A stretch of 64,000 nucleotides of DNA, taken from the NCBI GenBank assembly GCA_963664295.1, contig OY760935.1, positions 640,001 to 704,000 of the forward strand, given 5' to 3'. How positions within the stretch are numbered: position 1 is the first letter of the stretch; every line of letters begins with the position of its first letter. The position numbers and the translations under genes were made by a program. Positions 3,843 to 18,614 of this stretch are shown piece after piece. Source of the stretch: Candidatus Altimarinota bacterium (GTDB taxonomy: Bacteria; Patescibacteriota; Gracilibacteria; CAIRYL01; GCA-016699755). Below the pieces are notes generated by a model that had not been told where the DNA came from, did not search any database, and saw only the letters and a list, made by a program, of their open reading frames with translations.

Positions 3843-3948
3843 AATGATACAAAAATCAGTTTAGATAATTACACAAGTTATTTTTTAATTCAAGCCTTGC
3901 AAGAAAAAAGCGGTTATGGCAAACTTTTATGCGATTAACTTATCAAAA

Positions 3949-5622
3949 ATGATTGGCGCAGAAGTATTACTAGAATGTTTAAAAAAAGAAGGCGTAGAAG
4001 TAATTTTCGGTTATCCGGGAGGCGTTGTCTTGCCTTTTTATGATAAATTAAATCAACAAAAAGACATTCGTCATATACTTGTTCGCCATGAACAAGCTGC
4101 TGCCATGGCTGCAGATGGCTATTCTCGTTGTAGTGATAAAACTGGTGTTTGCTTAGCCACTTCCGGCCCTGGAGCAACAAACTTAGTCACTGGTATTGCC
4201 AATGCTTTCTTGGACTCTATTCCTATGGTGGTTATCACTGGTCAAGTATCTAGTTTTGCTATTGGCACTGATGCTTTTCAGGAGGTTGATATCTTTGGAA
4301 TTTGTACGCCAATTACCAAACAATGTTATCAGGTGCTTGATGCCAATGATTTACCAAGAATTATCAAAGAAGCTTTTCATATAGCCAAAAATGGCAGACC
4401 AGGTCCTGTACTTATTGATATTCCTAAAAATATTTTTGAACAAAAAGTAGAAAATTTTAAATATCCAAAAAAAGTTGATTTACCAGGCTATAAGCCAATT
4501 CGCGAAGGCAATCCAGGTCAAATCGAAAAAGCACATAATTTAATCAAAAAATCCAAAAAACCAGTTGTATTAGCTGGTCATGGAATTGTGCTTGGCAATG
4601 CAGAAAAAGAATTCATCGAATTTGCTGAAAAACTCCAAGCTCCAGTTATTTCCACTCTTTTGGCTATGGATATTCTGCCAAAAAGCCATGATCTTAATTT
4701 TGGAATGCTGGGAATGCATGGCGAGCTTGCTGCTAATCTCGCTGTGCACAATAGCGACTTAGTTATTGGTATTGGTCTTCGTTTTGATGATCGCGTACTT
4801 GGACGGGCAGATGAATTTGCCCCTAATGCTAAAGTTATTCATATTGATATTGATCGTGCAGAAATAGGCAAAAACAGAATTGTTGATGTGCCGATTGTTG
4901 GTGACACCAAGCTTGTTATTCCCGAATTGCTCAAAAATTTTGCAACAAAAGATCATTCCAGCTGGTTAAAGCAATTAAAATCATGGAACGATGAAAAAGA
5001 AACAAAATTAAAAGCAAAAATTAGAGAATATACTCATCTTTCTGCCGGCGATGTTATTAAAAAAATCTCAGATATAACCAAAGGAGAAGCAGTTGTTTCT
5101 GCAGATGTAGGACAAAATCAAATGTGGACTGCCTGCAGATATGAATTTAAAACACCAAAAAATCATATATCCTCAGGAGGTCTTGGCACAATGGGCTTTT
5201 CTGTGCCTTCGGCAATGGGTGCTAAAGTTGCCCGCCCAAAAGACACAGTACTTGCTATTTGCGGAGATGGCGGTTTTCAAATGAACATGCAAGAACTTAT
5301 GACTCTTATACAAGATGATATTCAAGTAAAAATTGTTATCTTAAACAACGGCTTTTTAGGAATGGTTCGTCAATGGCAAGAGTTATTTTATAATAAAAAC
5401 TATTCTTATACTCCTTTAATTGGTCCTGATTTTACAAAATTAGCAGAAAGCTTTGGGGTTAAGGCTTATAAAGCTGAGACCATGGAAGAATTAGAAAAAA
5501 ACTTTAAAGCTTGCTTAAAACACAATGGTCCAACTCTTTTAGAAGTTCGTACAGAAGCAGAAGAAAATGTTTTCCCTATGGTTTCTCCTGGTTCAACTTT
5601 AAAAGAAACAAGAATAAATTAA
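3949..5622 (+). CDS. ilvB: Acetolactate synthase large subunit
   Basis: FGYPGG, RHEQAA, TSGPGATN, GDGGFQMN TPP motif. Start at 3949 (MIGAEV) preferred over 3916, which overlaps the predicted promoter. Confidence 0.95.
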   Translation: MIGAEVLLECLKKEGVEVIFGYPGGVVLPFYDKLNQQKDIRHILVRHEQAAAMAADGYSRCSDKTGVCLATSGPGATNLVTGIANAFLDSIPMVVITGQVSSFAIGTDAFQEVDIFGICTPITKQCYQVLDANDLPRIIKEAFHIAKNGRPGPVLIDIPKNIFEQKVENFKYPKKVDLPGYKPIREGNPGQIEKAHNLIKKSKKPVVLAGHGIVLGNAEKEFIEFAEKLQAPVISTLLAMDILPKSHDLNFGMLGMHGELAANLAVHNSDLVIGIGLRFDDRVLGRADEFAPNAKVIHIDIDRAEIGKNRIVDVPIVGDTKLVIPELLKNFATKDHSSWLKQLKSWNDEKETKLKAKIREYTHLSAGDVIKKISDITKGEAVVSADVGQNQMWTACRYEFKTPKNHISSGGLGTMGFSVPSAMGAKVARPKDTVLAICGDGGFQMNMQELMTLIQDDIQVKIVILNNGFLGMVRQWQELFYNKNYSYTPLIGPDFTKLAESFGVKAYKAETMEELEKNFKACLKHNGPTLLEVRTEAEENVFPMVSPGSTLKETRIN

Positions 5623-5626
5623 AAAT

Positions 5627-6109
5627 ATGAAATCACACATTTTAATATTAAAGGCAATAAATACCTATGGTGTCCTTGGAAAAGTCACCAACCTACTTCG
5701 CAGAAGAAGATTTAATATCGAAGGCTTAACAGCAGGTCATACAGACCAAAAAGGAATATCACACATCACTGTTGCTTTTTCTTCGGAGGATGATTTCAAT
5801 GCAGAACAAGCCAAAAAACAACTTTCCAAAATAGTTGAGGTTATTAGCGTGCGTGATGTACAAGAAAAATCAGTAATCAGAGAAATTGCCTTATTTAAAC
5901 TTCATTGCTCAGAAAAAACCAAGGCTCCAATTTTTGATGCAACAAAATTATTCGAAGGAAAAATTGTAGATAGTAGTAAAAAAACAATAATAGTAGAAAT
6001 AACCGGCACACCAAAAAGAATAGACCAATTCCATGAATTAGTAAGAAATTACGGCGTAAAAGAATTCATAAGATCCAGCGTAATTGCTGTCAAATCTGAT
6101 ATAAATTAA
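5627..6109 (+). CDS. ilvN: Acetolactate synthase small regulatory subunit
   Basis: ACT-type N..GVL..V..L.RRRFNI, KQLSKIVEV; follows ilvB. Confidence 0.9.
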   Translation: MKSHILILKAINTYGVLGKVTNLLRRRRFNIEGLTAGHTDQKGISHITVAFSSEDDFNAEQAKKQLSKIVEVISVRDVQEKSVIREIALFKLHCSEKTKAPIFDATKLFEGKIVDSSKKTIIVEITGTPKRIDQFHELVRNYGVKEFIRSSVIAVKSDIN

Positions 6110-6127
6110 AAATTTAACCATAAAAAA

Positions 6128-7117
6128 ATGTCAAAAATAATCCATGATGCAGATGTAAGCACAAATGTAATAGAAGGAAAAACTATTGCAGTAATCGGCT
6201 ATGGCGCTCAAGGAAGGGCACAAGCAAGAATGATGCACGAATCTGGACTTAATGTTGTTGTTGGTTTGCGTGAAAACGGCCCAAGCTGGCAACAAGCCCA
6301 GGAAGACGGTTTAAAAACAAATCCAATTAGTGAAGCAGTAAAAACAGCGGATATTATTCACATTCTCATCCCAGACGAACATCAGCAAGATGTATATGAA
6401 CAAGAAATCGCACCAAATCTAAAAGAAGACGCTACTCTCAGCTTTTCGCATGGATTTAATATTGTATACAAAAGAATTACTCCACCAGAAGGAGTTGATG
6501 TGATTATGGTTGCACCAAAATGCCCAGGAACAGAAGAATACAAAAGATATTCAGAAGGTTTTGGCGTTCCTGCGCTAGTAGCTGTGGGTCAAGATGCTTC
6601 AGGCCAAGCGCTTAACAAAGCCCTTGAAATGGCAAAAAAAATGTACTTCACAAAAGCTGGCGTCATGCAATGCACTTTTGAAGAAGAAACTTATGAGGAT
6701 CTTTTTGGTGAACAGGCTGTGCTTTGCGGTGGCTTGGCGCAACTTATTAAATATGGCTTTGAAACATTAGTTGAAGCTGGTTATCCACCAGAGTTTGCCT
6801 ATTTTGAGTGCTTACATGAAATGAAGCTTATTGTTGATCTTGTTTACGAAGGAGGTTTTTCAAAAATGAATGAAGTGGTCTCAAATACAGCAGAATATGG
6901 CGGTCACACTAGAGGATCTCGTGTTATTGGACCAGAAGTAAAAGAACGCATGAAAGAAGTCTTAAAAGAAGTTGAAAATGGCACTTTTGCTAAAGAATGG
7001 ATGCATGAAGCACGCGAAAACAAAATGCAAAAACTTTTTGAATATCGCAAAAAAGAAAGCGAACATCCGATTGAGCAAGTGGGTAAAAAAATTAGATCTT
7101 TGTTTGAAATGGATTAA
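6128..7117 (+). CDS. ilvC: Ketol-acid reductoisomerase (class I)
   Basis: IGYGAQG, FSHGFNI, MVAPKCPG, DLFGEQAVLCGG, SNTAEYG. Confidence 0.96.
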   Translation: MSKIIHDADVSTNVIEGKTIAVIGYGAQGRAQARMMHESGLNVVVGLRENGPSWQQAQEDGLKTNPISEAVKTADIIHILIPDEHQQDVYEQEIAPNLKEDATLSFSHGFNIVYKRITPPEGVDVIMVAPKCPGTEEYKRYSEGFGVPALVAVGQDASGQALNKALEMAKKMYFTKAGVMQCTFEEETYEDLFGEQAVLCGGLAQLIKYGFETLVEAGYPPEFAYFECLHEMKLIVDLVYEGGFSKMNEVVSNTAEYGGHTRGSRVIGPEVKERMKEVLKEVENGTFAKEWMHEARENKMQKLFEYRKKESEHPIEQVGKKIRSLFEMD

Positions 7118-7947
7118 GTTGCTTCCGTTGGAGCACTACCAGGAAAAAGAAAATTACTTACTGGTGCATTGTTTCCGCTAGCGCCTCCACCAGCATTAAT
7201 AATCTTGCCAGCAATTCCACTATTTGCCACTCTTGATCCCCAATTTACATAAGAATCAGCAACAGAAGTGCCAATTTTGAGTATATCTGTGCTGGTATCT
7301 TTTGTGAGCTCACCAAATCTACCCCAGCGCTCTTTGACCCAGTTCATAGTGCGATCTGTTTTGGCTTGCTCTGCTACTTTTAATCCTGGTAAACGACCAA
7401 GGGTAAAATTCCACATCTTATTTAAACCAAGTGCATTGCGAGTACCATTAACAACATCAGCCACAGCACCAAAAGCAACTCCTGGAGCTTCGATAGCGCT
7501 TAATGCTGTTGATTTTACCCCATCCAAAGCCAAATCTTTTGCGCTCATGGTAGCATTAAAGGCATTTTTTGTTGCCATCAAAGGAGCGCCAATAGCAACA
7601 TCTTGAATACCACCAACGCCAATAGCCAAACCCGTTTCCGCTGTATCTTTACTAACACCTAAAACCGCCCCTAAGCCTTTACGAGTACCGCTAATAATAC
7701 CATTAAAAGGTGTTTTTCCTAATTGCCATAAGCCATTCGCCAAGCCCAAAGTTGCATCAACAGCAAGACCAGCAGGCAACATAGCAATTGCCAAACCTCT
7801 AGTTCCTGCGTCTAATATTATATTACCATGGGCTGAAGTTAAGAAATCTTTTGCAACACTAGTGACTGGCATTTTTGATAAAGCACCTCCCTCATTAAAA
7901 ATTTTTTGATATTTTGAGCCAGTAAATTGAAATGGTATTTGATGCAT
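7114..7947 (-). CDS. Hypothetical Gly/Ala-rich amphipathic protein
   Basis: 277-aa ORF, last gene of the 17713-7114 minus-strand run; no recognisable domain. Confidence 0.75.
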   Translation of the reverse strand: MHQIPFQFTGSKYQKIFNEGGALSKMPVTSVAKDFLTSAHGNIILDAGTRGLAIAMLPAGLAVDATLGLANGLWQLGKTPFNGIISGTRKGLGAVLGVSKDTAETGLAIGVGGIQDVAIGAPLMATKNAFNATMSAKDLALDGVKSTALSAIEAPGVAFGAVADVVNGTRNALGLNKMWNFTLGRLPGLKVAEQAKTDRTMNWVKERWGRFGELTKDTSTDILKIGTSVADSYVNWGSRVANSGIAGKIINAGGGASGNNAPVSNFLFPGSAPTEAT

Positions 7948-7982
7948 TTTATTTTAATTAAATTTTTTATTTATAAAGTTGT

Positions 7983-10900
7983 TTAGTATTCTGACAGTTT
8001 ACTTCCTAATTTTTCCTTTACCTCTTGTTGGTCCCTGAGAGTATTATTTAATGATAAACGGTTCAAGTTGCCTTTAGATAATTTTTCTGCGACTTCTGAA
8101 CTTATGGAAGTAAGTCCGTATAAATGCAAATGACCCAAGTTGCCTTTAGCTAATTTTTCTGCGACTTCTGGAGTTATGGAAGTAAGTCCTTTTAAATACA
8201 AATAATTAAAGTTGCCATTAGCTAATTTTTCTGCGACATCTGGAGTTATGGAAGTAAGTCTGTCTAAAGACAAAAAAGTCAAGTTGTTATTAGCTAATTT
8301 TTCTGCGACTTCTGGAGTTATGGAAGTAAGTCCGTCTAAATGCAAAGAAGCCGAATTGTTATTAGCTAATTTTTCTGCGACTTCTGGAGTTATGGAAGTA
8401 AGTCCGTCTAAAAACAAAGAAGTCAAGTTGTTATTAGCTAATTTTTCTGCGACTTCTGGAGTTATGGAAGTAAGTCCGTCTAAATACAAACGACCCAAGT
8501 TGCCATTAGCTAATTTTTCTGCGACATCTGGAGTTATGGAAGTAAGTCCGTTTAAATACAAATAATTAAAGTTGCCATTAGCTAATTTTTCTGCGACATC
8601 TGGAGTTATGGAAGTAAGTCCGTCTAAAGACAAAAAAGTCAAGTTGTTATTAGCTAATTTTTCTGCAACTTCTGGAGTTATTGAAGTAAGTCTGTTTAAA
8701 TGCAAAGAAGTCAAGTTGTTATTAGCTAATTTTTCTGCAACTTCTGGAGCTATGGAAGTCAGTCCGCTTAAATGCAAAGAAGTCAAGTTGTTATTAGCTA
8801 ATTTTTCTGCAACTTCTGGAGTTATTGAAGTAAGTCCGTTTAAATACAAAGAAGTCGAATTGCCATTAGCTAATTTTTCTGCAACTTCTGGAGTTATGGA
8901 AGTAAGTCTGTTTAAATACAAATAATTCAAGTTGCCTTTAGCTAATTTTTCTGCAACTTCTGGAGTTATTGAAGTAAGTCCGTTTAAATACAAAGAAGTC
9001 GAATTGCCATTAGCTAATTTTTCTGCAACTTCTGGAGTTAGGCTTTTTAAAGCTTGAATATCACTATATGAAAAATTACCCTCTAATATTTTTTGATATA
9101 ATTGTAATTGTTCTTGTTCATCTTCACTAGAAGCTTCTTCTGCTTCCGCAGGCATTTCATCTCCTATATCATCAAGTAAATCATCTATTGCTTCATTTTC
9201 TGTATCTGATAATCCTGTTAAAACATCACCTACTTCTTCTTCCGTGATCTCAGCATCTTCTTCTAGGCCTAGTTCTAAATCCTCTTCGTTTGCGCTTTCT
9301 GGTGCATCATCAATTTGCGATGCATCAATCACCTCTTCAGAAGCAGAATCATCAACCTCTGACCATTCTGCATCTACCACCTCATCAGAAGGGCTTGTTT
9401 GTAATGATGACTGCTGTTGCTGTGAATCTGCCTCTTCTTGAGCTGGTTCTGAACCTAATTCAGAACCTAAGCCTAGATCGTCAGCATCTTCTTCTGCCAT
9501 TGCCTGTATATCTAGCTCTGCTTTTTTTTCGTTTGCGCTTTCTGGTGCATCATCAATTTGCGGTGCATCAATCACCTCTTCAGAAGCAGAATCATCAACC
9601 TCTGACCATTCTGCATCTACCACCTCATCAGAAGGGCTTGTTTGTAATGATGACTGCTGTTGCTGTGAATCTGCCTCTTCTTGAGCTGGTTCTGAACCTA
9701 ATTCAGAACCTAAGCCTAGATCGTCAGCATCTTCTTCTGATTCTTGTTCTGCTACTTCTGCTTCTGTTTCTAGGTCTAAACCTAGATCGTCAGTGTCTTG
9801 TTCTGATTCTTGTTCTGCTACTTCTGCTTCTGTTTCTAGGTCTAAGCCTAGATCGTCAGCATCTTCTTCTGATTCTTGTTCTGCTACTTCTGCTTTTTTG
9901 TTGATCACAGCAGTCTCTGTTGCATTATCTAGGCCTATTATTTCACCTTCAAATTTAGCCAAAGCTAAAATAGCTGCATCATCACTTACTGATAAGCCTG
10001 AAAACATTATTGATCCAACTGTAGATTGTGCCAACTCTTTTATTGCGTTAGGAGTTATGACTTGAAGGTCATTCAAAATTAAAACATATCCATTATACTT
10101 TGCTAGTTCTTTTGCTTCTTCAGACTCTAATTTAGCCAAGCCCTCAATTTTCAAAGTGTAACCATTAAAACTTGCTAGCGCAATAGCTATCTCAGGACTC
10201 AATTGATTAAAACAATTTACAAAACAAAGTTCACTTACAACAGCCTTGCATAACTCCTTCATTACAAGTGGGCTAATATGTGTAAGACTTTTAAACTGAA
10301 GTCGATTTTTTATAAAACCTCCTAATATTTTTGCTTCATCAAGTTCTAACCTACGAAGTTTATCAAAATCAATATTTCTAAAACCTGAGAATTTAATCTT
10401 GTGAGCAATATCTACAGTAAGCTCTTCTATGTTTTCTATGTCATCTTTATTAAAATCACCGCTTAATATTCTTTGCTTTATTTGTTCTTGTTCATCTAAA
10501 CTTTCATTTGCTTCTTGATCTACACTATTCAGCAAGTTATCTAAATTATCTTGACTTAATGCTCCCTCTTCATCGAGTTCTCTCGACGCTCCTATATCTG
10601 TATCTAAGTCTAAGCTTGGTGCTAGTTCTTGTGGGCTTGGTTCTGACTCTGGGGCAGACTGTGGCTGTGACTGTGGCTGTGGTTCTGGCTCTGGGGCAGA
10701 CTGTGGCTGTTGCTGTGGTTCTGGCTCTGAGGCAGACTGTGGCTGTTGCTGTGGTTCTGGCTCTGGGGCAGACTGTGGCTGTTGCTGTGGTTCTGATCTT
10801 GTTGCATTAGCTCTTCTTTGATTTGATACATCCTCTACTTCTACAAAATTAGCCACTTCTTCAAAAAATCCAAGTGTTTTCTTTGGCAAATCTCCACCAG

Positions 10901-13412
10901 GATCATTATCCTTCCCTCTTCCAAACTGAAACCATTCACCCAAAGTCTCTATTATTGGACCTAAAACTTTTCCCGTTCCAGATGCAATATATTTAGCGCC
11001 AATATTAATTGGGCTAATACCTTTTTTCAAGCTTTTGTCTACTTTCTTTATTTTCTCTGCAATTTTATTATTAATATTAGCTGCATAAGGATTACCTTGT
11101 TTTTTGCTAAAAGGATAATGTTTGTCAATAGCAGCTCTTCTAGTTTTTTCTCCAATTTTTTCCAATAATTCAACTCTCTTGCCCTCTGCTTCTTCTCCAT
11201 AAATTTTTTCCAAAATATCATCAAGATTATCAGCATTAACTTGCTCTTTAAATTTCTCAAATACAGCTTTTTTGCCATAATGCTCAATTTTTTTTCTTTT
11301 CGCAATTGGCAATTCATTAACCATTCCCTCAAGATTGGTTAAAATCGTATCTTCTTCAAGACCTAATGCGTCTTGCATTATTGTTAAAATACTTTCTGAG
11401 TCTAATTTTTTAAACTCAACTTTGGACGGAATATCCATTTCTTCTGGTTTAACCGGCTTGCCATCGCTCGTTTTGCCAGCATAAAAAAGTTTCTTAAAAT
11501 TAAGTTCATTGTTGCCTAAATTGCTTATAGCAATTTGATACAATAATTCTTTTATTTCTGGTAAATCCAAGCTTTCTTTCAGTAGCGCAAGCGCATAAAA
11601 ATGCTCCTTGTAATCAATTGCTTCGCTCAATTTAGATAATTTTTCAGGAGTTTCAAAAATATCTTCCATTAAATTGCTCATAAAAGCATCACCACTTATA
11701 AGTTCTTTGCTGATTTTTTTATCATTCATCCAAAAAGGCTTCCCATTCGGTTGCCTTGCTTCAAACTTGCTATAGTCTTGTCTACCTACTCCTTCTGCTT
11801 CCAAGTCATCAGCAGCTTCCATAAGCATCACAAACGCCTCTGATTTTGTATAATTTCTTCTCCAAAGCTTAGTAATATTTACAAAATCTGCCACCTCATA
11901 AGCTCCTCGACCAAAATTAGCGAAAATACTATCTCTAGAATTTTCAATTATATTATCAATAGCGCCTGTGCCACTAAAAACCTCTTTGTCGCTTTTTACA
12001 GAGGTAATATTTCTTACAAGAGAATTTAAAACACCCTTTCTAAGATCATCCCTGGTTCCTGTTCTTAAATCACCAAAATACGAAGCATTACGACCTTGTA
12101 CTCCTATTTTTTTAAGCATATTTGGTAAATTTCCATTACCAACACCTGGCAAATTTCTAGTCAAGTGATTTACTGCCATTTTTCTGTCTTCCTCGTCTTC
12201 GTTACTAAGAGAAGCTCTAACTATCCAGTCAATAATCACATCTAATCTTCTTTGGATTTCTATTGGTGGATATTTTTCTAAATTATTTCTGGTTCTATTT
12301 ACTGCTTCTTGTTGTTGCAGATTTGTTTCTTCTTCGTCCCCTTGTGATAATCTCTCTTTTTTTGATGTTAATTTTTCTATTGTTTCAGCTTTGTCAGCAT
12401 TTGCAAGACCGAGCTCATTTGGAAACAGTTTTTTAATTTCTGCTTTTTCTTGATCACTAAATTTTTTAGAAGCAAGTATGCGAACTGCATCATTTCCCTC
12501 AAAACTCGCTAACTTATCTGTTAATTTTGTAAGCTTATTTGCTTCTTTTAATTTTTCTTTAATTTGCTTTTTGTCACCTTTTACTTGCGGAATACTTCCA
12601 AATCTTTCAGTTTCAAACAAAGTATCTAATTCTTTTTTATTAAAAAAACTATTATTTGTAGAACCTCTTCTGTGTGCACCTCTTAATGCATTTGTTGTTG
12701 CAAAAACACCAGCAAATGCCCATGGTCCTAGAGCATAAGCAGGAAGCGCTGCCACAACAGCACCAAGAGCCAAACCTCCCACAGCAGTTGTTATAGCGTT
12801 ATCAGCTGCTATCTTCCAAGGCTCTTTAATCTTTGCTTGACGATATCCTTCATAAGAATTATATACAAGCGGTGTTGCCATAAGCACAGACTTACTAAAA
12901 ACAACAGAACCAAGACCTTTGAAAAAAGCAGCAAAAGCTGACATACCCTCTTTGCTTGCTTCATTGATTACATCTTGCACCCCTGTTTCACCTAATGTTT
13001 CCTGAAGATATTGTTCCATTTCTGGAGGTAATTCAAACTCATCAGCTTGCTCTTGAGCCAAGGCCGAAGAAGACAAAGCAGTTGCTGTTGTCACTGTTGC
13101 CAGTCCAGTTGCACCTCCATATTTAATAACCTTGCTAATTTTTTGCGCCAAACTAGTTTCTTCTGGTTCCAAAACTGGATTTTTATTTTTATCATCACCC
13201 AATACATCAGCCATTTTTTCCCTATTATCAGCCATAGGAGTCACAACTCCCTCAGCTAAAGTAAAAGTTTTTTCAAGCTCTGCTTTTGTAATTTGCCCTG
13301 CTTGTTCTATTTGTTCTGGTGTCAGATTTTTTGCATCCAACCCAGCTCCCTCTTGAGCTTCTTGTAAAGGATCTGCTGTATTTTTGCCATCACTTCTGTT
13401 TATTGATGTCAT
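7983..13412 (-). CDS. Giant hypothetical protein: N-terminal hydrophobic segments, acidic repeat linkers, two leucine-rich-repeat regions
   Basis: 1809-aa ORF; 24-aa LxxLxLxGLTSITPEVAEKLAxxN repeats at C-terminus. Confidence 0.85.
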   Translation of the reverse strand: MTSINRSDGKNTADPLQEAQEGAGLDAKNLTPEQIEQAGQITKAELEKTFTLAEGVVTPMADNREKMADVLGDDKNKNPVLEPEETSLAQKISKVIKYGGATGLATVTTATALSSSALAQEQADEFELPPEMEQYLQETLGETGVQDVINEASKEGMSAFAAFFKGLGSVVFSKSVLMATPLVYNSYEGYRQAKIKEPWKIAADNAITTAVGGLALGAVVAALPAYALGPWAFAGVFATTNALRGAHRRGSTNNSFFNKKELDTLFETERFGSIPQVKGDKKQIKEKLKEANKLTKLTDKLASFEGNDAVRILASKKFSDQEKAEIKKLFPNELGLANADKAETIEKLTSKKERLSQGDEEETNLQQQEAVNRTRNNLEKYPPIEIQRRLDVIIDWIVRASLSNEDEEDRKMAVNHLTRNLPGVGNGNLPNMLKKIGVQGRNASYFGDLRTGTRDDLRKGVLNSLVRNITSVKSDKEVFSGTGAIDNIIENSRDSIFANFGRGAYEVADFVNITKLWRRNYTKSEAFVMLMEAADDLEAEGVGRQDYSKFEARQPNGKPFWMNDKKISKELISGDAFMSNLMEDIFETPEKLSKLSEAIDYKEHFYALALLKESLDLPEIKELLYQIAISNLGNNELNFKKLFYAGKTSDGKPVKPEEMDIPSKVEFKKLDSESILTIMQDALGLEEDTILTNLEGMVNELPIAKRKKIEHYGKKAVFEKFKEQVNADNLDDILEKIYGEEAEGKRVELLEKIGEKTRRAAIDKHYPFSKKQGNPYAANINNKIAEKIKKVDKSLKKGISPINIGAKYIASGTGKVLGPIIETLGEWFQFGRGKDNDPGGDLPKKTLGFFEEVANFVEVEDVSNQRRANATRSEPQQQPQSAPEPEPQQQPQSASEPEPQQQPQSAPEPEPQPQSQPQSAPESEPSPQELAPSLDLDTDIGASRELDEEGALSQDNLDNLLNSVDQEANESLDEQEQIKQRILSGDFNKDDIENIEELTVDIAHKIKFSGFRNIDFDKLRRLELDEAKILGGFIKNRLQFKSLTHISPLVMKELCKAVVSELCFVNCFNQLSPEIAIALASFNGYTLKIEGLAKLESEEAKELAKYNGYVLILNDLQVITPNAIKELAQSTVGSIMFSGLSVSDDAAILALAKFEGEIIGLDNATETAVINKKAEVAEQESEEDADDLGLDLETEAEVAEQESEQDTDDLGLDLETEAEVAEQESEEDADDLGLGSELGSEPAQEEADSQQQQSSLQTSPSDEVVDAEWSEVDDSASEEVIDAPQIDDAPESANEKKAELDIQAMAEEDADDLGLGSELGSEPAQEEADSQQQQSSLQTSPSDEVVDAEWSEVDDSASEEVIDASQIDDAPESANEEDLELGLEEDAEITEEEVGDVLTGLSDTENEAIDDLLDDIGDEMPAEAEEASSEDEQEQLQLYQKILEGNFSYSDIQALKSLTPEVAEKLANGNSTSLYLNGLTSITPEVAEKLAKGNLNYLYLNRLTSITPEVAEKLANGNSTSLYLNGLTSITPEVAEKLANNNLTSLHLSGLTSIAPEVAEKLANNNLTSLHLNRLTSITPEVAEKLANNNLTFLSLDGLTSITPDVAEKLANGNFNYLYLNGLTSITPDVAEKLANGNLGRLYLDGLTSITPEVAEKLANNNLTSLFLDGLTSITPEVAEKLANNNSASLHLDGLTSITPEVAEKLANNNLTFLSLDRLTSITPDVAEKLANGNFNYLYLKGLTSITPEVAEKLAKGNLGHLHLYGLTSISSEVAEKLSKGNLNRLSLNNTLRDQQEVKEKLGSKLSEY
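8045..9040 (-). repeat. Tandem array of about 14 x 72-bp units encoding 24-aa leucine-rich repeats
   Basis: gctaatttttctgc recurs every 72 bp from 8149 to 9013, with a variant at 8077. Confidence 0.95.
9285..9739 (-). repeat. Near-perfect ~210-bp direct duplication (243-bp period) in acidic linker
   Basis: cgtttgcgctttctggtgcatcatc at 9287 and 9530; peptide EEDADDLGLGSELGSEPAQEE...DDAPESANE occurs twice. Confidence 0.92.
9712..9895 (-). repeat. 3 x 66-bp tandem repeat (AEVAEQESEEDADDLGLDLETE)
   Basis: cctagatcgtcag at 9715, 9781, 9847. Confidence 0.9.
10640..10795 (-). repeat. About 4 x 36-bp tandem repeat (EPQQQPQSAPEP linker)
   Basis: gcagactgtggctgt units in DNA and repeated peptide. 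Confidence 0.9.
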
Positions 13413-13465
13413 TTTTTGTTTTTAATTTTTGTTTTTATTGCTATTTTTTGTTTTTATTTACTAGG

Positions 13466-16400
13466 TTACCTCGAGAGAATATTGGCAAGCACGAATTCTA
13501 ACCAATTTTTCATGCCACTTTTTGTGTATTGACCGCCCACACCTTGAGATGGATTTTGCAATATAAGATTTTTAAATATTACTTTAAATTTTTCTGAATT
13601 ATCCTGCATCAATATTTGTCCTTTCTTCGGATCAACAGATTTAAATGATTTACCCTGAACTAAATTTGCATGGGCTTTTTTGAAAACCTCATCTCCCAAT
13701 TTATCAACCATTTCCACTGTCCATGGAATTTTTTTGTTTCCATTTTTTTCTAAAGACTTTTGAATTTGATCAAAACTGATTATTACTTCTGGCAATCTTG
13801 ATCCTTTTTTAATATTAAAATCATTCAATTTAGCACCTTCGAGCAATGTATTTCCATCTTTAAAAAATTTATCAACATTATCACCAACAAATGGAATAAG
13901 GGAACCAGTATCACCAGCAAAAGAATTTAGCCTTTGAAAAAGATCAACACCTTTTCTTTCCCCAGCAGTAAGTTTATCAGCCCCATAGTCAAGCAACTTG
14001 TCCACACCAAGAAGATTAACCAAAAACAATCTACATATTTCACCTTGTGTAATAGAATCTTTTGCAAGATCAGTATCTTCTCCAACTGCTTTTCGAATCT
14101 CTGTAATCAAAGTATTAAAACTCTTCGCAGTAGAGCTATTTGCAGTAGTAGGATCAAAAAGATATTCCAATGCCAAATCCAAATCACCTGGACGAACAAA
14201 TCCATAAGCCTCTTGCACTTGTTTATGAATTCCTGCATCTTTTACCGCTTGTTTTAGGGCATCTGCGCTACTAATTGTCACCTCTTTTTCAGGATTCTTC
14301 ATGCTACTCAACATATTGACATAGCCCCCAACCACATTGAATGAAAAATGCCTAAGCAAAGTCAATGCTTCTGGCAATTTTTCTGCACTAAATTCCAAAG
14401 CCCAACCAGCAGTCTCAAAAGGCAACTTAGCTGTTTTAAGAATAAGCCCGTCTGTTCCAGGCGTACCCATAAGCAATCTATAGGTCTTGCTTCCTTGTGC
14501 TATTTCTATGTATTCTTTTCCTTTTTCTATTCCTGTATCAACTATGTTCCAGCCCTTGTTTGCCATATCTTTCACAAATGGTATTGCATCTTCTTTGAAA
14601 AATTTTTTCAAAAGAGCAATAACCACAGGCAATTTTTCTTTTCCACTTCTAGCAACATCTTTAAGATAAGGCACTGCTGTAGCCCAAGCTTCGCCAAATT
14701 TTTGTGTGACAAAATCGGTAATATCTCTGTTTTTCTCAAGACTACGATTAAAGTCTTGTTTGTCAATTGCTAATGCCAACAAATTACCAAAAGTAACCTT
14801 TTCTTTTGCCTTTCTGTTAAACAAATTACTATTGCTCATCATTTTTTCTGCTACTTTTATACCCTCTTCAACACTAGGTTTTTTGTATTTTGACCTCTCC
14901 ATAGAAAGATCTTTAAAATACAACTCCAAAAGACCAAGAGAAATCATAGCAAGATCAGCCTGCTTACTTTCTGTTGTTGAGCCTGGCAAATCTTCAATAA
15001 AAATCTTCAATTCATCAGGCATGCCATTCATTATAACCTCACCCGCATTATCCACTTGAATTTCTGATGCTCTTGTTTTTTTATGCCAATCCAAAAGCTT
15101 GTGCATTTCAATATCATTCATTGCCTTCATCAATCTTGGACTTTGTTTTGATTCCAATGCTTTCTGTTGCCATGCTGTTGGATTTAGTTCTTCTTTTTTC
15201 CAATCAAGTTTATCTAGATAAATCTGAAAAATTGCTCCTTCTTGTCCTTTTTCCTCACTAAACAAGCCAATTTCCTCAAAAATATCATAGCCATTATATT
15301 CTTTAATAAACTCACGCAACAAAACTCCACCAAAAATATACTTACCATATTCTCCTAATTTACCACCACCAAAAGCAACTTTGTAAATTCCATACAAAAT
15401 TCCAACTGCAGTAGTCATTTTCAATGGGTCGCCAGAAGTCACCATATCCATCCAAGTATCAAAACCTCTTTCCATAAAATCCGGATCCAATCCGCTTTGT
15501 TCTGCATTATAATAATCAGAAAGAGTTTTTTGATAATTATCCATTCTGCTTAATAATTCACCCTGCAAAAGCTTCAAAAGCTCAGTATTTTCAATCAAAG
15601 CACCACTAGCCTGGCTTGTATTTTTTGCTTCTGGGTTAATTTTTCTTTGCATTACATCATTATGCATAACCAAAAACTTCTCTAGCATACTTGAGTTCAC
15701 CTCCTCTTCATTAAACTTTCCTTTTTCATCAAACCATAAATGAGGATCAATAATGTTTGCCTGACCATTGCCCTCCTGCCCAAAATAAAGACGGATAAAT
15801 TTTTCTCTTGTTGCGCGCAAATCCACTCCTGTTTTTTTCTCAAAAGCCTCTAGTTGCAAATTTCTTAATCTTTCTGTTAATTTTTTTGTTTCAATTTTCT
15901 TAAACTTTGCCAAAGCTTCACTTAATCCCGCTAAGCCAGAGCTAGTAGGCTCACTACTGCTAAGGCCTTTTGCAACTTGACTATATAACAAGTTTGAATT
16001 AGTGTTTAAACTTGTAATCATATTGCCAAGCTCAACATAGCCATAAAAACAAGCAAACAACAAAAACTCCTTCACTTTTGGATCAGCAGGCTCTGGAATA
16101 CCTGAATCCAGCCATAATTTTCTTTCAATATCATCAAATCTCTTCCTTAACTCTTTGCGCTCAAGTGCTTTTTCAAAAATATTCCAATAGCTACCACCCT
16201 TATCAAGAGGTTTTGACTCTGGAGATCTTCCTTGAAATGTCTTTTGCCATTTTAGATTTTCTTTGAGCCCATCTATTTCTTCTTTTAGTTGATCAACTTC
16301 TCTTTTGTCGAGTTCATATTCAAGAACTGATTTTAAATACTCCTTTCTTAATTTATCCAATTGAGTTGCATCAGGTGATGTCTTATTTTTTTCTTTATTA

Positions 16401-17713
16401 TAAGCGTCTTTTGCTTTTGCCATTTCTTGTCCTTTTGCTTTTAGTTGAGCTTCTTTTGGACTTAATTCTTCTTCTTTTTCCTGAATTTGAGTTTCTAATG
16501 TAGAGATATCCACTAGGTCAAAAATAGGATTAGAATGATAAGCTTCCAGTCTCCCATAAAATTCATCCTCTTTTTTAATTATTTCTTGAGCCAATGCTTT
16601 ATTTGGATTTGCTCTATATTTTCTTCGCAAGGTTCTTAGGTCAATTTCTTGTTGGCTTAATCTAGCATTTACCAAAGCAAAATTGTTGTCCTCCGAAACA
16701 CGATCCTCACACAATCCATCAAAAAGACGCATATCACACTGCATCATTCTTCTTTTGTATCTCTCCGCCACATCAGCATTGGTTTCTTTGGCACTAGGGT
16801 ACACAATAGCAATAAAACTACCTGAGTCTATTTTTCTCGCTTTTTCACCAGCTGGCAAAGAGGCATAATATTCATAAATTGCTTTATTAACAAGCATTCT
16901 TACCTCCCATTCTCGTAGCTTAGATAGTTTTCTTTTTTCTTTCTTTAGCCTTTCCTCTAAGCCACTCTTCTCTGTTCCACTTGCAGTTGAAACTTGCTCT
17001 TTTAATTTTTCCACCTCTATTTGCTTCAAAATAACAGCTCCAAGTACATTTTTTGCTGCCAAAACAGCAGCTTGATATTCTCTTTGTAATCTTTCTAGCT
17101 CTTTTTGCTTACTCACATTTTCTCTAGCTTTTGATAATAATCTATCTAATTTTTCTTTAATTGCTATTAATTCTTTTTTAGTTTTTTCTATGTTTTCATT
17201 TTTTATTAAATCAGGGAGCACTAAGTTTACTTTTTCGTATATATTTAACAAAAATGAAGATATCAGATTTGTCTTATTACTAAGATTAAACTTTACATCT
17301 GTATTGCTATCCAACAATTTATTAATGATGTTTAATTCTGCTTGCGTAAACCCAAAATCTTGAAAACTTGCCTTTTCTTGTGCAAGTTCAAGTTTTAATT
17401 TTGTAATCTCTTCTTCTTTTCCGCTTGCTTTCAAGTTAAAATATTCTTTTATTTGCTCATTTTCTTCCACCATGCTCTCATCCCAAACAGTAATCTTACC
17501 AGCAAGTTGCAAATATTCATCCGGATCACTATTTCTAATGTCATCAAGACTTTCTAAAAACCCATCAAAAATTTCATTACTATCAAATCTTTCTGCACCA
17601 AAACTAGGTCTTTCAGGTGTTCCCAAAAAAACTGGCAAATTGCACAAAAAAAACTTTTTCAACTTGTTATTTTCAGGTTTCTGCCAATGAAAATTACTAT
17701 TTTCAAATTTCAA
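13466..17713 (-). CDS. Giant hypothetical coiled-coil protein with an internal hydrophobic hairpin
   Basis: 1415-aa ORF (TTG start, start uncertain); E/K/L heptads; TTAVGILYGIYKVAFGGG...YIFGGVLL. Confidence 0.85.
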   Translation of the reverse strand: MKFENSNFHWQKPENNKLKKFFLCNLPVFLGTPERPSFGAERFDSNEIFDGFLESLDDIRNSDPDEYLQLAGKITVWDESMVEENEQIKEYFNLKASGKEEEITKLKLELAQEKASFQDFGFTQAELNIINKLLDSNTDVKFNLSNKTNLISSFLLNIYEKVNLVLPDLIKNENIEKTKKELIAIKEKLDRLLSKARENVSKQKELERLQREYQAAVLAAKNVLGAVILKQIEVEKLKEQVSTASGTEKSGLEERLKKEKRKLSKLREWEVRMLVNKAIYEYYASLPAGEKARKIDSGSFIAIVYPSAKETNADVAERYKRRMMQCDMRLFDGLCEDRVSEDNNFALVNARLSQQEIDLRTLRRKYRANPNKALAQEIIKKEDEFYGRLEAYHSNPIFDLVDISTLETQIQEKEEELSPKEAQLKAKGQEMAKAKDAYNKEKNKTSPDATQLDKLRKEYLKSVLEYELDKREVDQLKEEIDGLKENLKWQKTFQGRSPESKPLDKGGSYWNIFEKALERKELRKRFDDIERKLWLDSGIPEPADPKVKEFLLFACFYGYVELGNMITSLNTNSNLLYSQVAKGLSSSEPTSSGLAGLSEALAKFKKIETKKLTERLRNLQLEAFEKKTGVDLRATREKFIRLYFGQEGNGQANIIDPHLWFDEKGKFNEEEVNSSMLEKFLVMHNDVMQRKINPEAKNTSQASGALIENTELLKLLQGELLSRMDNYQKTLSDYYNAEQSGLDPDFMERGFDTWMDMVTSGDPLKMTTAVGILYGIYKVAFGGGKLGEYGKYIFGGVLLREFIKEYNGYDIFEEIGLFSEEKGQEGAIFQIYLDKLDWKKEELNPTAWQQKALESKQSPRLMKAMNDIEMHKLLDWHKKTRASEIQVDNAGEVIMNGMPDELKIFIEDLPGSTTESKQADLAMISLGLLELYFKDLSMERSKYKKPSVEEGIKVAEKMMSNSNLFNRKAKEKVTFGNLLALAIDKQDFNRSLEKNRDITDFVTQKFGEAWATAVPYLKDVARSGKEKLPVVIALLKKFFKEDAIPFVKDMANKGWNIVDTGIEKGKEYIEIAQGSKTYRLLMGTPGTDGLILKTAKLPFETAGWALEFSAEKLPEALTLLRHFSFNVVGGYVNMLSSMKNPEKEVTISSADALKQAVKDAGIHKQVQEAYGFVRPGDLDLALEYLFDPTTANSSTAKSFNTLITEIRKAVGEDTDLAKDSITQGEICRLFLVNLLGVDKLLDYGADKLTAGERKGVDLFQRLNSFAGDTGSLIPFVGDNVDKFFKDGNTLLEGAKLNDFNIKKGSRLPEVIISFDQIQKSLEKNGNKKIPWTVEMVDKLGDEVFKKAHANLVQGKSFKSVDPKKGQILMQDNSEKFKVIFKNLILQNPSQGVGGQYTKSGMKNWLEFVLANILSR

Positions 17714-17743
17714 GTTTTTATTTTTATTTCAGAAAATCATATT

Positions 17744-17772
17744 ATTATCTCATAAATAAGCCTTTTTTTCAA
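17744..17772 (-). promoter_or_regulatory. sigma70-type promoter of the giant-protein operon
   Basis: TTGAAA-17 nt (ending TGA)-GATAAT; near-identical copy at 25224-25252. Confidence 0.6.
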
Positions 17773-17837: not shown

Positions 17838-18614
17838 CGTCATTGCGAATCTAAAAAAAAGGATCGTCATTGTGGGCTTTTTGGGTTGTCATTGTGGACT
17901 TTTTGGATTGTCATTGCGGACTTTTTGGGGTGTCATTGCGAGGAACCTGCCTCTTTTTTTGTCATTATCGGACTTGATCCGATAATCCAGAGAATCATGT
18001 CATTGCGGACTTGATCCGCAATCTCCTTGTCCATGTGCCCAACTCCTATCTTGTCATTGCGGGCTGTTTAGGGTGGTGTCATTGCGGACTTGATCCGCAA
18101 TCTCGGGAGGCAGGAGGTCTCATTGTGAACATAAAACACACCCTTACTGTCATTCTGAGCGGAATGAAATGGAGCGAAGAATCTCCTTGTCCATGCGCTC
18201 AAGTCCTGCCTTAGGTAATTCAACAGTAATGACAACGGGAGATCCTTCGCTTCGCCTAAAGGCTCGCTCAGGATGACATACTATTTCTGTCATTCTGAGC
18301 GAAAAACACTCCCTTTTTGTCATTCTGAGCGGAATGAAATGGAGCGAAGAATCTCCTTGTCCATGCGCTCAAAATCTATCTTGTCATTGCGGACTTTTTG
18401 GGGTGTCATTGCGAGGAACCTGCCTCTTTTTTTGTCATTATCGGACTTGATCCGATAATCCAGAGAATCATGTCATTGCGGACTTGATCCGCAATCTCCT
18501 TGTCCATGCGCTCAAGTCCTGCCTTAGGTAATTCAACAGTAATGACAACGGGAGATCCTTCGCTTCGCCTAAAGGCTCGCTCAGGATGACAGAGTAAAGG
18601 GGCTCAGAATGACA
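17838..18614 (+). repeat. Mosaic array of TGTC-tagged palindromic REP-like elements (locus 1)
   Basis: About 16 GTCATT-headed units and 5 inverted ATGAC tails; hairpins ATTGCGGA-cttga-TCCGCAAT and ATTATCGGA-cttga-TCCGATAAT; internal ~125-bp and ~100-bp direct repeats. Confidence 0.9.

Follow-up and report, generated by a model that had tools for sequence, protein, structure and literature searches.

The window analysed here is a stretch of 64,000 nucleotides from a Candidatus Altimarinota bacterium of the class Gracilibacteria (assembly GCA_963664295.1, contig OY760935.1, positions 640,001 to 704,000), whose genome, referred to below as the source genome (G000), is complete in a single contig of 1.215 Mb. 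On the minus strand of the window, which carries all features of the cassette located below, three consecutive genes, here called A, B and C, are flanked by a convergent ilvBNC operon on one side and a DHH-family gene on the other. The open reading frames (ORFs) confirm what a preliminary description had stated of them, namely that they are co-oriented, encode proteins of 1415, 1809 and 277 aa and are separated by gaps of 53 and 35 bp. That description had further viewed them as orphans behind one promoter that could form a host-attachment or host-penetration system. Our analysis shows that A-B-C is a conserved cassette of the class Gracilibacteria, very small bacteria that depend on hosts, and that A is the founder of an unnamed single-copy family of this class; the strongest new result is a portable N-terminal tag carried by A, C and scattered unrelated proteins.

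Architecture of the three proteins

Gene A (13466..17713, with a TTG start) encodes a variable helical N-terminal arm, a hydrophobic hairpin and a helical core. The conserved core (residues 720-1130; 14324..15556) includes an all-helical domain at about residues 817-985 that is confidently modelled, and the hairpin (residues ~763-807; 15293..15427) comprises two short, moderately hydrophobic arms of 13-15 residues with a Gly/Lys loop between them, seen as two helices in the AlphaFold model. This hairpin is kept in all 24 aligned cores, with profile hydropathy peaks of 1.6 and 0.9, and in each of them the same order is found, in which an amphipathic helix is followed by the two hydrophobic arms around their loop and then by the helical domain. 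The model of residues 640-1415 (776 residues) has a mean pLDDT (predicted local distance difference test) of 65 and a pTM (predicted template modelling score) of 0.45. It returned no Foldseek match at E<=0.001 and a best VIA Z of 6.8, which does not prove a new fold, and the best score of an Atlas search with the core, 0.78, is a lead at most. Pfam, NCBIfam and PDB gave no match for A, B, C or the 24 A cores, the leucine-rich repeat (LRR) tail of B apart, and PHROG gave none for the A, B and C of the window or for the conserved A core.

The N-terminal arm of A varies in sequence and in length, from ~110 to >1,000 residues, and is rich in coiled coils in several homologues. A crude heptad test, which detects more such runs in homologues, finds a single one in the A of the window (residues 170-223) and none in B, which corrects the earlier mention of long coiled coils. 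Comparison of the source genome with a close strain gives 15 non-synonymous and 7 synonymous changes in the arm as against 6 and 10 in the core; these are raw counts, which together make up 38 of 40 differences.

Gene B (7983..13412) begins with a conserved N-terminal membrane module, continues into the helical B2 and ends in a genome-specific tail. After an acidic extension, an internal segment at residues 91-119 (13056..13142) resembles a signal peptide by eye, being basic, then hydrophobic, with an A-x-A; such a segment was likewise seen by eye in several B-like proteins and not in four others. The earlier statement that none of the three proteins has a classical Sec signal stands for A and C, with this qualification for B. 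By hydropathy and homology, the B1 module (12678..12935) contains two or three helices of moderate hydrophobicity with a basic stretch after them, and the B2 module (11778..12230), supported by leave-one-out homology and alignment, is soluble and helical; B2-like proteins occur as separate soluble proteins, with neither tag nor signal, in four genomes. A structure model of residues 85-571 (pLDDT 38) was unusable. The possibility that B is a divergent VirB2 pilin was rejected, as the B1 segments had no match to PF18895 at E<=1, where two control pilins do match, and the hhalign probability was 0.1%. Sub-threshold matches of B to PARP and TonB were discarded because they fall on the Pro-rich linker, as were matches to regulators in the family libraries, which lay far below the cut-off.

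Further along, B carries a genome-specific Pro/Gln/Glu tandem linker (10638..10795; 4.2 copies of a 36-bp unit), followed by a first, degenerate LRR-like block at residues ~990-1165 (9918..10445), read from the sequence and similar to LRR paralogues, by a duplicated acidic linker (9285..9895; a 243-bp unit x1.9 and a 66-bp unit x2.8) and by a C-terminal array of 24-aa LRRs (8063..9040; 13.6 copies of a 72-bp unit). Both the acidic linkers and the terminal LRRs had been noted before and are upheld: Asp and Glu make up 38% of residues 1175-1440, and the array consists of tandem 20-30 aa LxxLxL repeats like those of solved LRR proteins, which it matches at E 1e-10, with no Pfam LRR model passing its cut-off on this tail. 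Neither LRRs nor acidic repeats are present in any other B among the loci read, which marks them as local additions; the LRR module recurs in other proteins of the source genome, and its Atlas look-alikes are mostly from Planctomycetota. A receptor-tipped stalk, as previously envisaged, is accordingly not supported as part of the conserved system. Further, the basic stretch after the last hydrophobic helix implies that the LRR tail would lie inside the cell, if B resides in the membrane of its own cell. A loose second N-terminal pattern was also observed, in which an acidic stretch precedes R-E-K/R-hydrophobic (B residues 60-75); it recurs, unscored, in B-like and other signal-less proteins such as the untagged orphan G000:C1:258259-259506.

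Gene C (7114..7947), which runs into the stop of the convergent ilvC and shares 4 bases with it, encodes a net basic, Gly/Ala-rich protein with a Gly+Ala content of 27%, exceeding that of 99.8% of the source-genome ORFs. The hydrophobic Gly/Ala-rich stretches quoted earlier for each protein all exist, with Kyte-Doolittle 19-mer means of up to 1.9 in B and 1.8 in C; that of A stays below 1.3 in the source genome, yet belongs to the conserved hairpin.

Distribution and linkage across Gracilibacteria

As a single query, A recovers homologues in 6 of 40 relatives, and a 7-row profile, searched against 1.84 billion representatives at E<=0.001, recovers 33 clusters, of which four are weak and repeat-like. 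A 24-row profile of the core matches at exactly one place in each of 74 of the 401 genomes of the class, the 24 training rows being counted among the 74. By group, the core is present in 18/20 genomes of the order of the source genome, 28/31 of family f12, 18/64 of f9, 7/16 of f27 (weakly), 2/4 of f8 and 1/12 of f18, and was detected in none of several large families, e.g. f10 (43 genomes), f13 (64) and f23 (31). Among 401 genomes of the phylum, one marginal match (E 8.9e-4), to a different part of the profile, lay outside the class. Since G008 escaped the first A profile despite carrying A, these tallies are lower bounds. Two of the homologues are named in their sources as Ca. Gracilibacteria and Ca. 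Peribacteraceae. The view of the three proteins as orphans is therefore not upheld: A and C match no Pfam, NCBIfam, PHROG or PDB family, but homologues exist across the class. An A homologue appears split into two ORFs at L212:6741-10667 (G147) and at L213:5533-10001 (G067), and in G147 the profile match runs across one TGA stop.

In the order of the source genome, 11 of the 15 loci examined (those of G000, G001-G008, G010 and G015, with G011 and G012 cut by contig ends and the other two, G014 and G018, belonging to genus g11) show A followed by one or two hydrophobic B-like genes and then by a basic, Gly/Ala-rich C-like gene, so that the genes are linked in most relatives. Neither this linkage nor the family searches, in which no characterised cytoplasmic family matched, refutes the earlier interpretation. 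Of the f9 loci, three have A-B-C, another is cut, and in a fifth neither B nor C is present downstream. The f12 loci have a C-like gene directly after A or past membrane-protein genes in 7/11 cases, and the remaining four end at or near the end of a contig. In leave-one-out profile searches against 1,890 proteins, the held-out member ranked first in 4/6 cases for B1, 5/5 for B2 and 6/6 for C, the window's own members giving E-values of 1.6e-8, 0.02 and 0.074, respectively. Searches of the 40 relatives with single proteins found C in none and B in one, and a search for related loci had no match. The flanks of the cassette vary between genomes, with the exception of a convergent MgtC/DUF4010 gene in six family members. 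Searches of open-licence full text listed no account of the A family, the cassette or the tag, and the cassette is undescribed within that scope, although A could figure as an unnamed cluster in supplementary tables of protein families from the Candidate Phyla Radiation (CPR).

Certain genes recur upstream of A (L054, L058, L059 and L061, just upstream; L053, L216). In f12 these are a small acidic helical protein of ~110 aa, which is possibly a chaperone, and a tagged family of 510-590 aa, both directly upstream; f9 also has a small acidic gene of this kind in the neighbourhood of A. In G008 two genes resembling type IV secretion system (T4SS) pilins by eye are divergent and immediately upstream of A (L145:11103-11965).

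A portable N-terminal tag

A, C and scattered unrelated proteins share a tag of the approximate form E-x-R-h-h-F at residue 6-30, the fuller motif read from homologue N-termini being about [FL]-x-E-x-R-h-h-[FYW] with polar, Pro-rich sequence after it. Of the 242 ORFs in the loci, a regular expression for it hit 22 at residue 11-25 and none beyond residue 50, a count that is circular because the expression was built from those very sequences. Hence, a scoring matrix trained only on the cassette loci of relatives, among them three cassette proteins of G002 and two of G010, was applied to unseen DNA from elsewhere in G002 (800 kb), from G008 (776 kb) and from G010 (400 kb). Among the first 45 residues, a score >=15 was reached three times in G002, three times in G008 and not at all in G010, with no internal occurrence in any of them, amounting to 6 in 65,559 N-terminal as against 0 in 486,003 internal positions (p ~3e-6, by hand calculation). 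Additionally, of the 13 A proteins in the library that had no part in training, 8 score >=8 (one of these being close to training sequences), as compared with 42 of 2,609 background ORFs, and the new loci of G097, G147 and G014 bear strong tags on A or its neighbours. A short hidden Markov model of the tag gave no match even in genomes known to carry it, and the simple regular expression showed no enrichment in the source genome.

In the window, C has a variant of the tag at residues 10-17 (7897..7920), which is shared with two further C proteins and a single A protein; the four distinct proteins all carry it at residue 10-11, with no other match in 1.15 million residues. Its presence on both A and C indicates that the tag moves between non-homologous proteins. 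The A of the window has a degenerate tag at residues 24-29 (17627..17644) that aligns with the tags of homologues and has a position-specific score of 10.6 by the first matrix and 5.2 by the second.

Tagged proteins differ strongly between genomes. A supposed likeness of two large ones was ruled out by BLAST (E 4.1). The best match in the source genome is an orphan of 1522 aa, and the second is a probable false positive. Five of its orphans that lack a signal peptide and have a tagged or tag-like N-terminus (G000:C1:823839-828407, 459853-464883, 768349-769392, 382221-385436 and 329493-332780) are candidate cargo; one of these has a PG_binding_1 domain and LRRs (with a start that is tag-like by eye only), one has LRRs and one has tandem repeats. 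In G008, L132:12822-18095 and L149:2178-4349 have N-terminal tag scores of 12.4 and 19.1 and no Pfam match; by eye, one of the two has an HExxH metalloprotease-like motif and the other recalls pre-toxin TG domains.

Cell-wall enzymes and candidate export machinery

The A homologue of G010 contains a lytic transglycosylase (SLT) domain inside its N-terminal arm (E 2.9e-15) and has no Sec signal. G002 encodes a tagged protein of 460 aa with an SLT domain (E 1.5e-10), likewise with no Sec signal, which adjoins a VanY gene, and SLT or VanY genes adjoin A in G011, G216 and G168. A peptidoglycan enzyme without a signal peptide would have to exit by another route. Lytic transglycosylases have been proposed in general terms as CPR weapons against the host envelope, in the accessible text of PMC11665869, PMC8080830 and PMC11452946. 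Thus, as regards a host-attachment or penetration system, the SLT domain in an A homologue, the wall hydrolases beside A and the shared tag together favour export and action on a wall.

Such a route is unlikely to be Tat: TatC had no match in the source genome (control 11/14), and the tag is followed by polar, Pro-rich sequence with no hydrophobic region, so that the tagged proteins were rejected as Tat substrates. Several wall-enzyme genes near A (SLT, DUF5715 and VanY; L030:203-2974, L010:17115-20000 and L049:9023-10096) have twin-arginine-like hydrophobic N-termini, though no TatC was found in the source genome. FlhA/SctV (PF00771) also had no match in this 100%-complete genome (control 4/14). 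The genome does encode a VirB4/TraG-like ATPase at genome positions 633424-635427, 12 kb from the cassette, together with 18 T4SS-pilin matches over the cut-off, six PilB/PilT-type ATPases and one FtsK.

The Patescibacteria T4SS, as characterised in the accessible parts of PMC12102498 and PMC10633639, is therefore represented in the source genome by a VirB4-like ATPase and many pilins, and is the leading candidate for the exporter of the tagged proteins. Its substrates are not known, and protein export has been proposed for it, according to the text available of PMC10633639; VirB6 is reported absent from Gracilibacteria in that of PMC12102498. A, B and C, however, are not recognisable VirB components, and the cassette is not consistently beside virB4. 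Known T4SS signals are mostly C-terminal.

Functional interpretation and its rivals

A-B-C is tentatively interpreted as a translocon-like module of a non-Sec contact secretion route, which would breach the host envelope and serve tagged cargo. It is favoured since wall enzymes lack a signal, a T4SS is present, and the A hairpin together with C fits the intermediate hydrophobicity of translocon proteins. That property avoids insertion of injectisome translocon proteins into the membrane of the producing cell, as the accessible part of PMC9993115 has it. The tag, lying in a polar N-terminus without a hydrophobic core, would be recognised by an exporter other than Sec; the most plausible ones are the Patescibacteria T4SS and a type IV pilus/type II-like ATPase, both of which are in the source genome. 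A would span the gap with its variable helical arm and insert the short hairpin into a membrane, with the lytic transglycosylase carried by the arm in one relative opening the host peptidoglycan. Basic, Gly/Ala-rich C may join A in that membrane as a minor pore partner, and B may be a membrane-embedded partner, probably on the parasite side, with lineage-specific add-ons, here the LRRs; the other tagged proteins would then be cargo delivered onto or into the host. A role in pore formation and injection is thus a predicted, reasoned model, which we hold to be possible and somewhat short of an even prospect. The broader claim, that a large part of the class possesses a protein-injection system unrelated to known translocons, with an A-B-C pore and E-x-R-h-h-F as the substrate signal, is doubtful.

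Comparison with known systems brings out both parallels and departures. Like the type III translocon (SctE/SctB/SctA, e.g. YopB/YopD/LcrV), as treated in the available sections of PMC9993115, the cassette has major and minor proteins of intermediate hydrophobicity encoded by genes that look co-transcribed, a probable N-terminal non-Sec signal that scattered cargo also bears, and, in its large protein, a hairpin, which in A is moderately hydrophobic. It differs in that A, B and C have no sequence or profile similarity to translocon proteins, that no FlhA/SctV export gate was found in the source genome, that no TPR (tetratricopeptide repeat) class II chaperone consistently accompanies it, and that the tag is a defined sequence motif. 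A is also about three times the length of SctE. The tripartite alpha-pore-forming toxins of the ClyA family (Hbl, Nhe and AhlABC) are helical proteins of ~40 kDa with a hydrophobic hairpin, encoded in three-gene operons. Three genes in a row and a helical A with a hydrophobic hairpin recall them, but no two of the proteins A, B and C match, so that they are not paralogues, their sizes are far from ~40 kDa, and no Pfam family or fold is matched. In searches with the whole 776-residue A model (pLDDT 65), the ClyA fold is not among the matches listed.

Several observations weigh against the translocon-like interpretation. With regard to the tag, it is weak or drifted in the source genome, where A scores 10.6 or 5.2 according to the matrix, while being strong in most homologues; its genome-wide N-terminal enrichment is slight there; 5 of the 13 library A proteins outside training score <8; and most tagged proteins match no family. 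The tag is missing from the source-genome counterpart of the tagged SLT protein, as it is from the VanY neighbours, which means that the tag is not required for such enzymes. With regard to the cassette, genus g11 (G014, G018) has a RuvB-like gene after A in place of B and C, G067 has a convergent gene there, no ATPase or chaperone gene was consistently found within the cassette, and for B and C the clades have only position and make-up in common (best hhalign probability 6%). Finally, B resembles an ordinary own-membrane protein in several genomes, and its LRR tail could then face the cytoplasm.

In one alternative, the proteins would remodel the membrane of their own cell, the coiled-coil arm and hairpin of A, in the manner of a dynamin paddle or PspA scaffold, drawing out a contact tube or vesicle at which, in place of a secretion machine, the tag docks proteins. 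The short hairpin arms, of 13-15 residues, the single-copy, near-core status of A, which is typical of structural genes, and the membrane helices and occasional signal-like segment of B agree with this. However, there is no GTPase or other family match in the A cores, and the SLT domains inside A and in another tagged protein need access to peptidoglycan; we consider this alternative rather unlikely. A further model, in which A is tethered by its hairpin and displays its variable arms as a stalk, close to the one envisaged earlier, that is anchored in the parasite's membrane and serves adhesion and local digestion of the host wall, with neither pore nor cargo, draws on the length range of the arms, their mostly non-synonymous changes and the proposal, in the accessible text of PMC8080830, that giant surface proteins are attachment factors in Vampirococcus. 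The ordinary giant surface proteins of the source genome start with clear signal peptides by eye, unlike A and C, and such a stalk would leave C and the presence of the tag on small unrelated proteins unexplained, so that it too appears unlikely.

A scaffold internal to the cell, acting at the poles or in division with its proteins in the cytoplasm and inner membrane, the tag as docking motif and the SLT fusions directed at the cell's own wall, would suit the separate, soluble B2-like proteins and the basic residues past the last hydrophobic helix of B, which fit a cytoplasmic tail. It is improbable, as the wall enzymes must still cross the membrane, with no Sec signal and no TatC found, and the tagged proteins vary between genomes to a degree unlike that of housekeeping scaffolds. 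Least probable by far is a domesticated phage ejection module, resembling the T7 internal virion proteins gp14, gp15 and gp16 and kept as a host-entry device: a co-oriented set of three helical proteins, one small and Gly/Ala-rich, one medium-sized and one large, and the G010 large protein, with an SLT domain near its N-terminus through which it matches phrog_342, recall the T7 ejectosome, but the genes are chromosomal and single-copy, with no capsid or tail genes, no phage genes in their flanks and no PHROG match outside the SLT domain. As to structural likeness to gp15 or gp16, the A model (pLDDT 65) had no PDB fold match.

Genomic setting of the cassette

Transcription from one promoter had been assumed, and a sigma-70-like candidate with a TG extension does lie 30 bp before A (17744..17772; a consensus match only). 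Promoter-like sites in the region number 40 as compared with 34.5 +/- 6.1 in shuffles; because this does not exceed chance, a single promoter is unproven. A contig without any difference covers 10766-17772 in runs X1 and X3 (one sample, possibly the source), and run X4, which at 2-5x depth covers parts of A and not B, counts as no evidence; no RNA data set holding the region was listed.

Upstream of A, a cluster of palindromic repeats resembling repetitive extragenic palindromes occupies 17866-18600, and three of its short motifs recur 21-55 times, in 13-25 five-kb bins genome-wide; by eye, a RAYT-like transposase gene is immediately upstream of A in L010 and L012. On the other side, the branched-chain amino-acid operon ilvB-ilvN-ilvC (3916-7117) lies in the genome of a CPR bacterium, a lineage usually without amino-acid synthesis, and biosynthetic-looking dap and lysA genes are found immediately outside the window.

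Implications

Very little is known of how Patescibacteria epibionts pass the host envelope and which cargo they secrete, according to the accessible part of a 2024 review (PMC11665869). The A-B-C cassette is a conserved candidate for the apparatus of contact between epibiont and host, and its tag is short and can be scored. If the proposed model is true, the tag would be a sequence rule by which to list effectors delivered to bacterial hosts. Should the pore model not hold, a family of giant proteins with no known fold, single-copy and near-core, together with a portable tag, still offers new handles on the unannotated proteome of this lineage.

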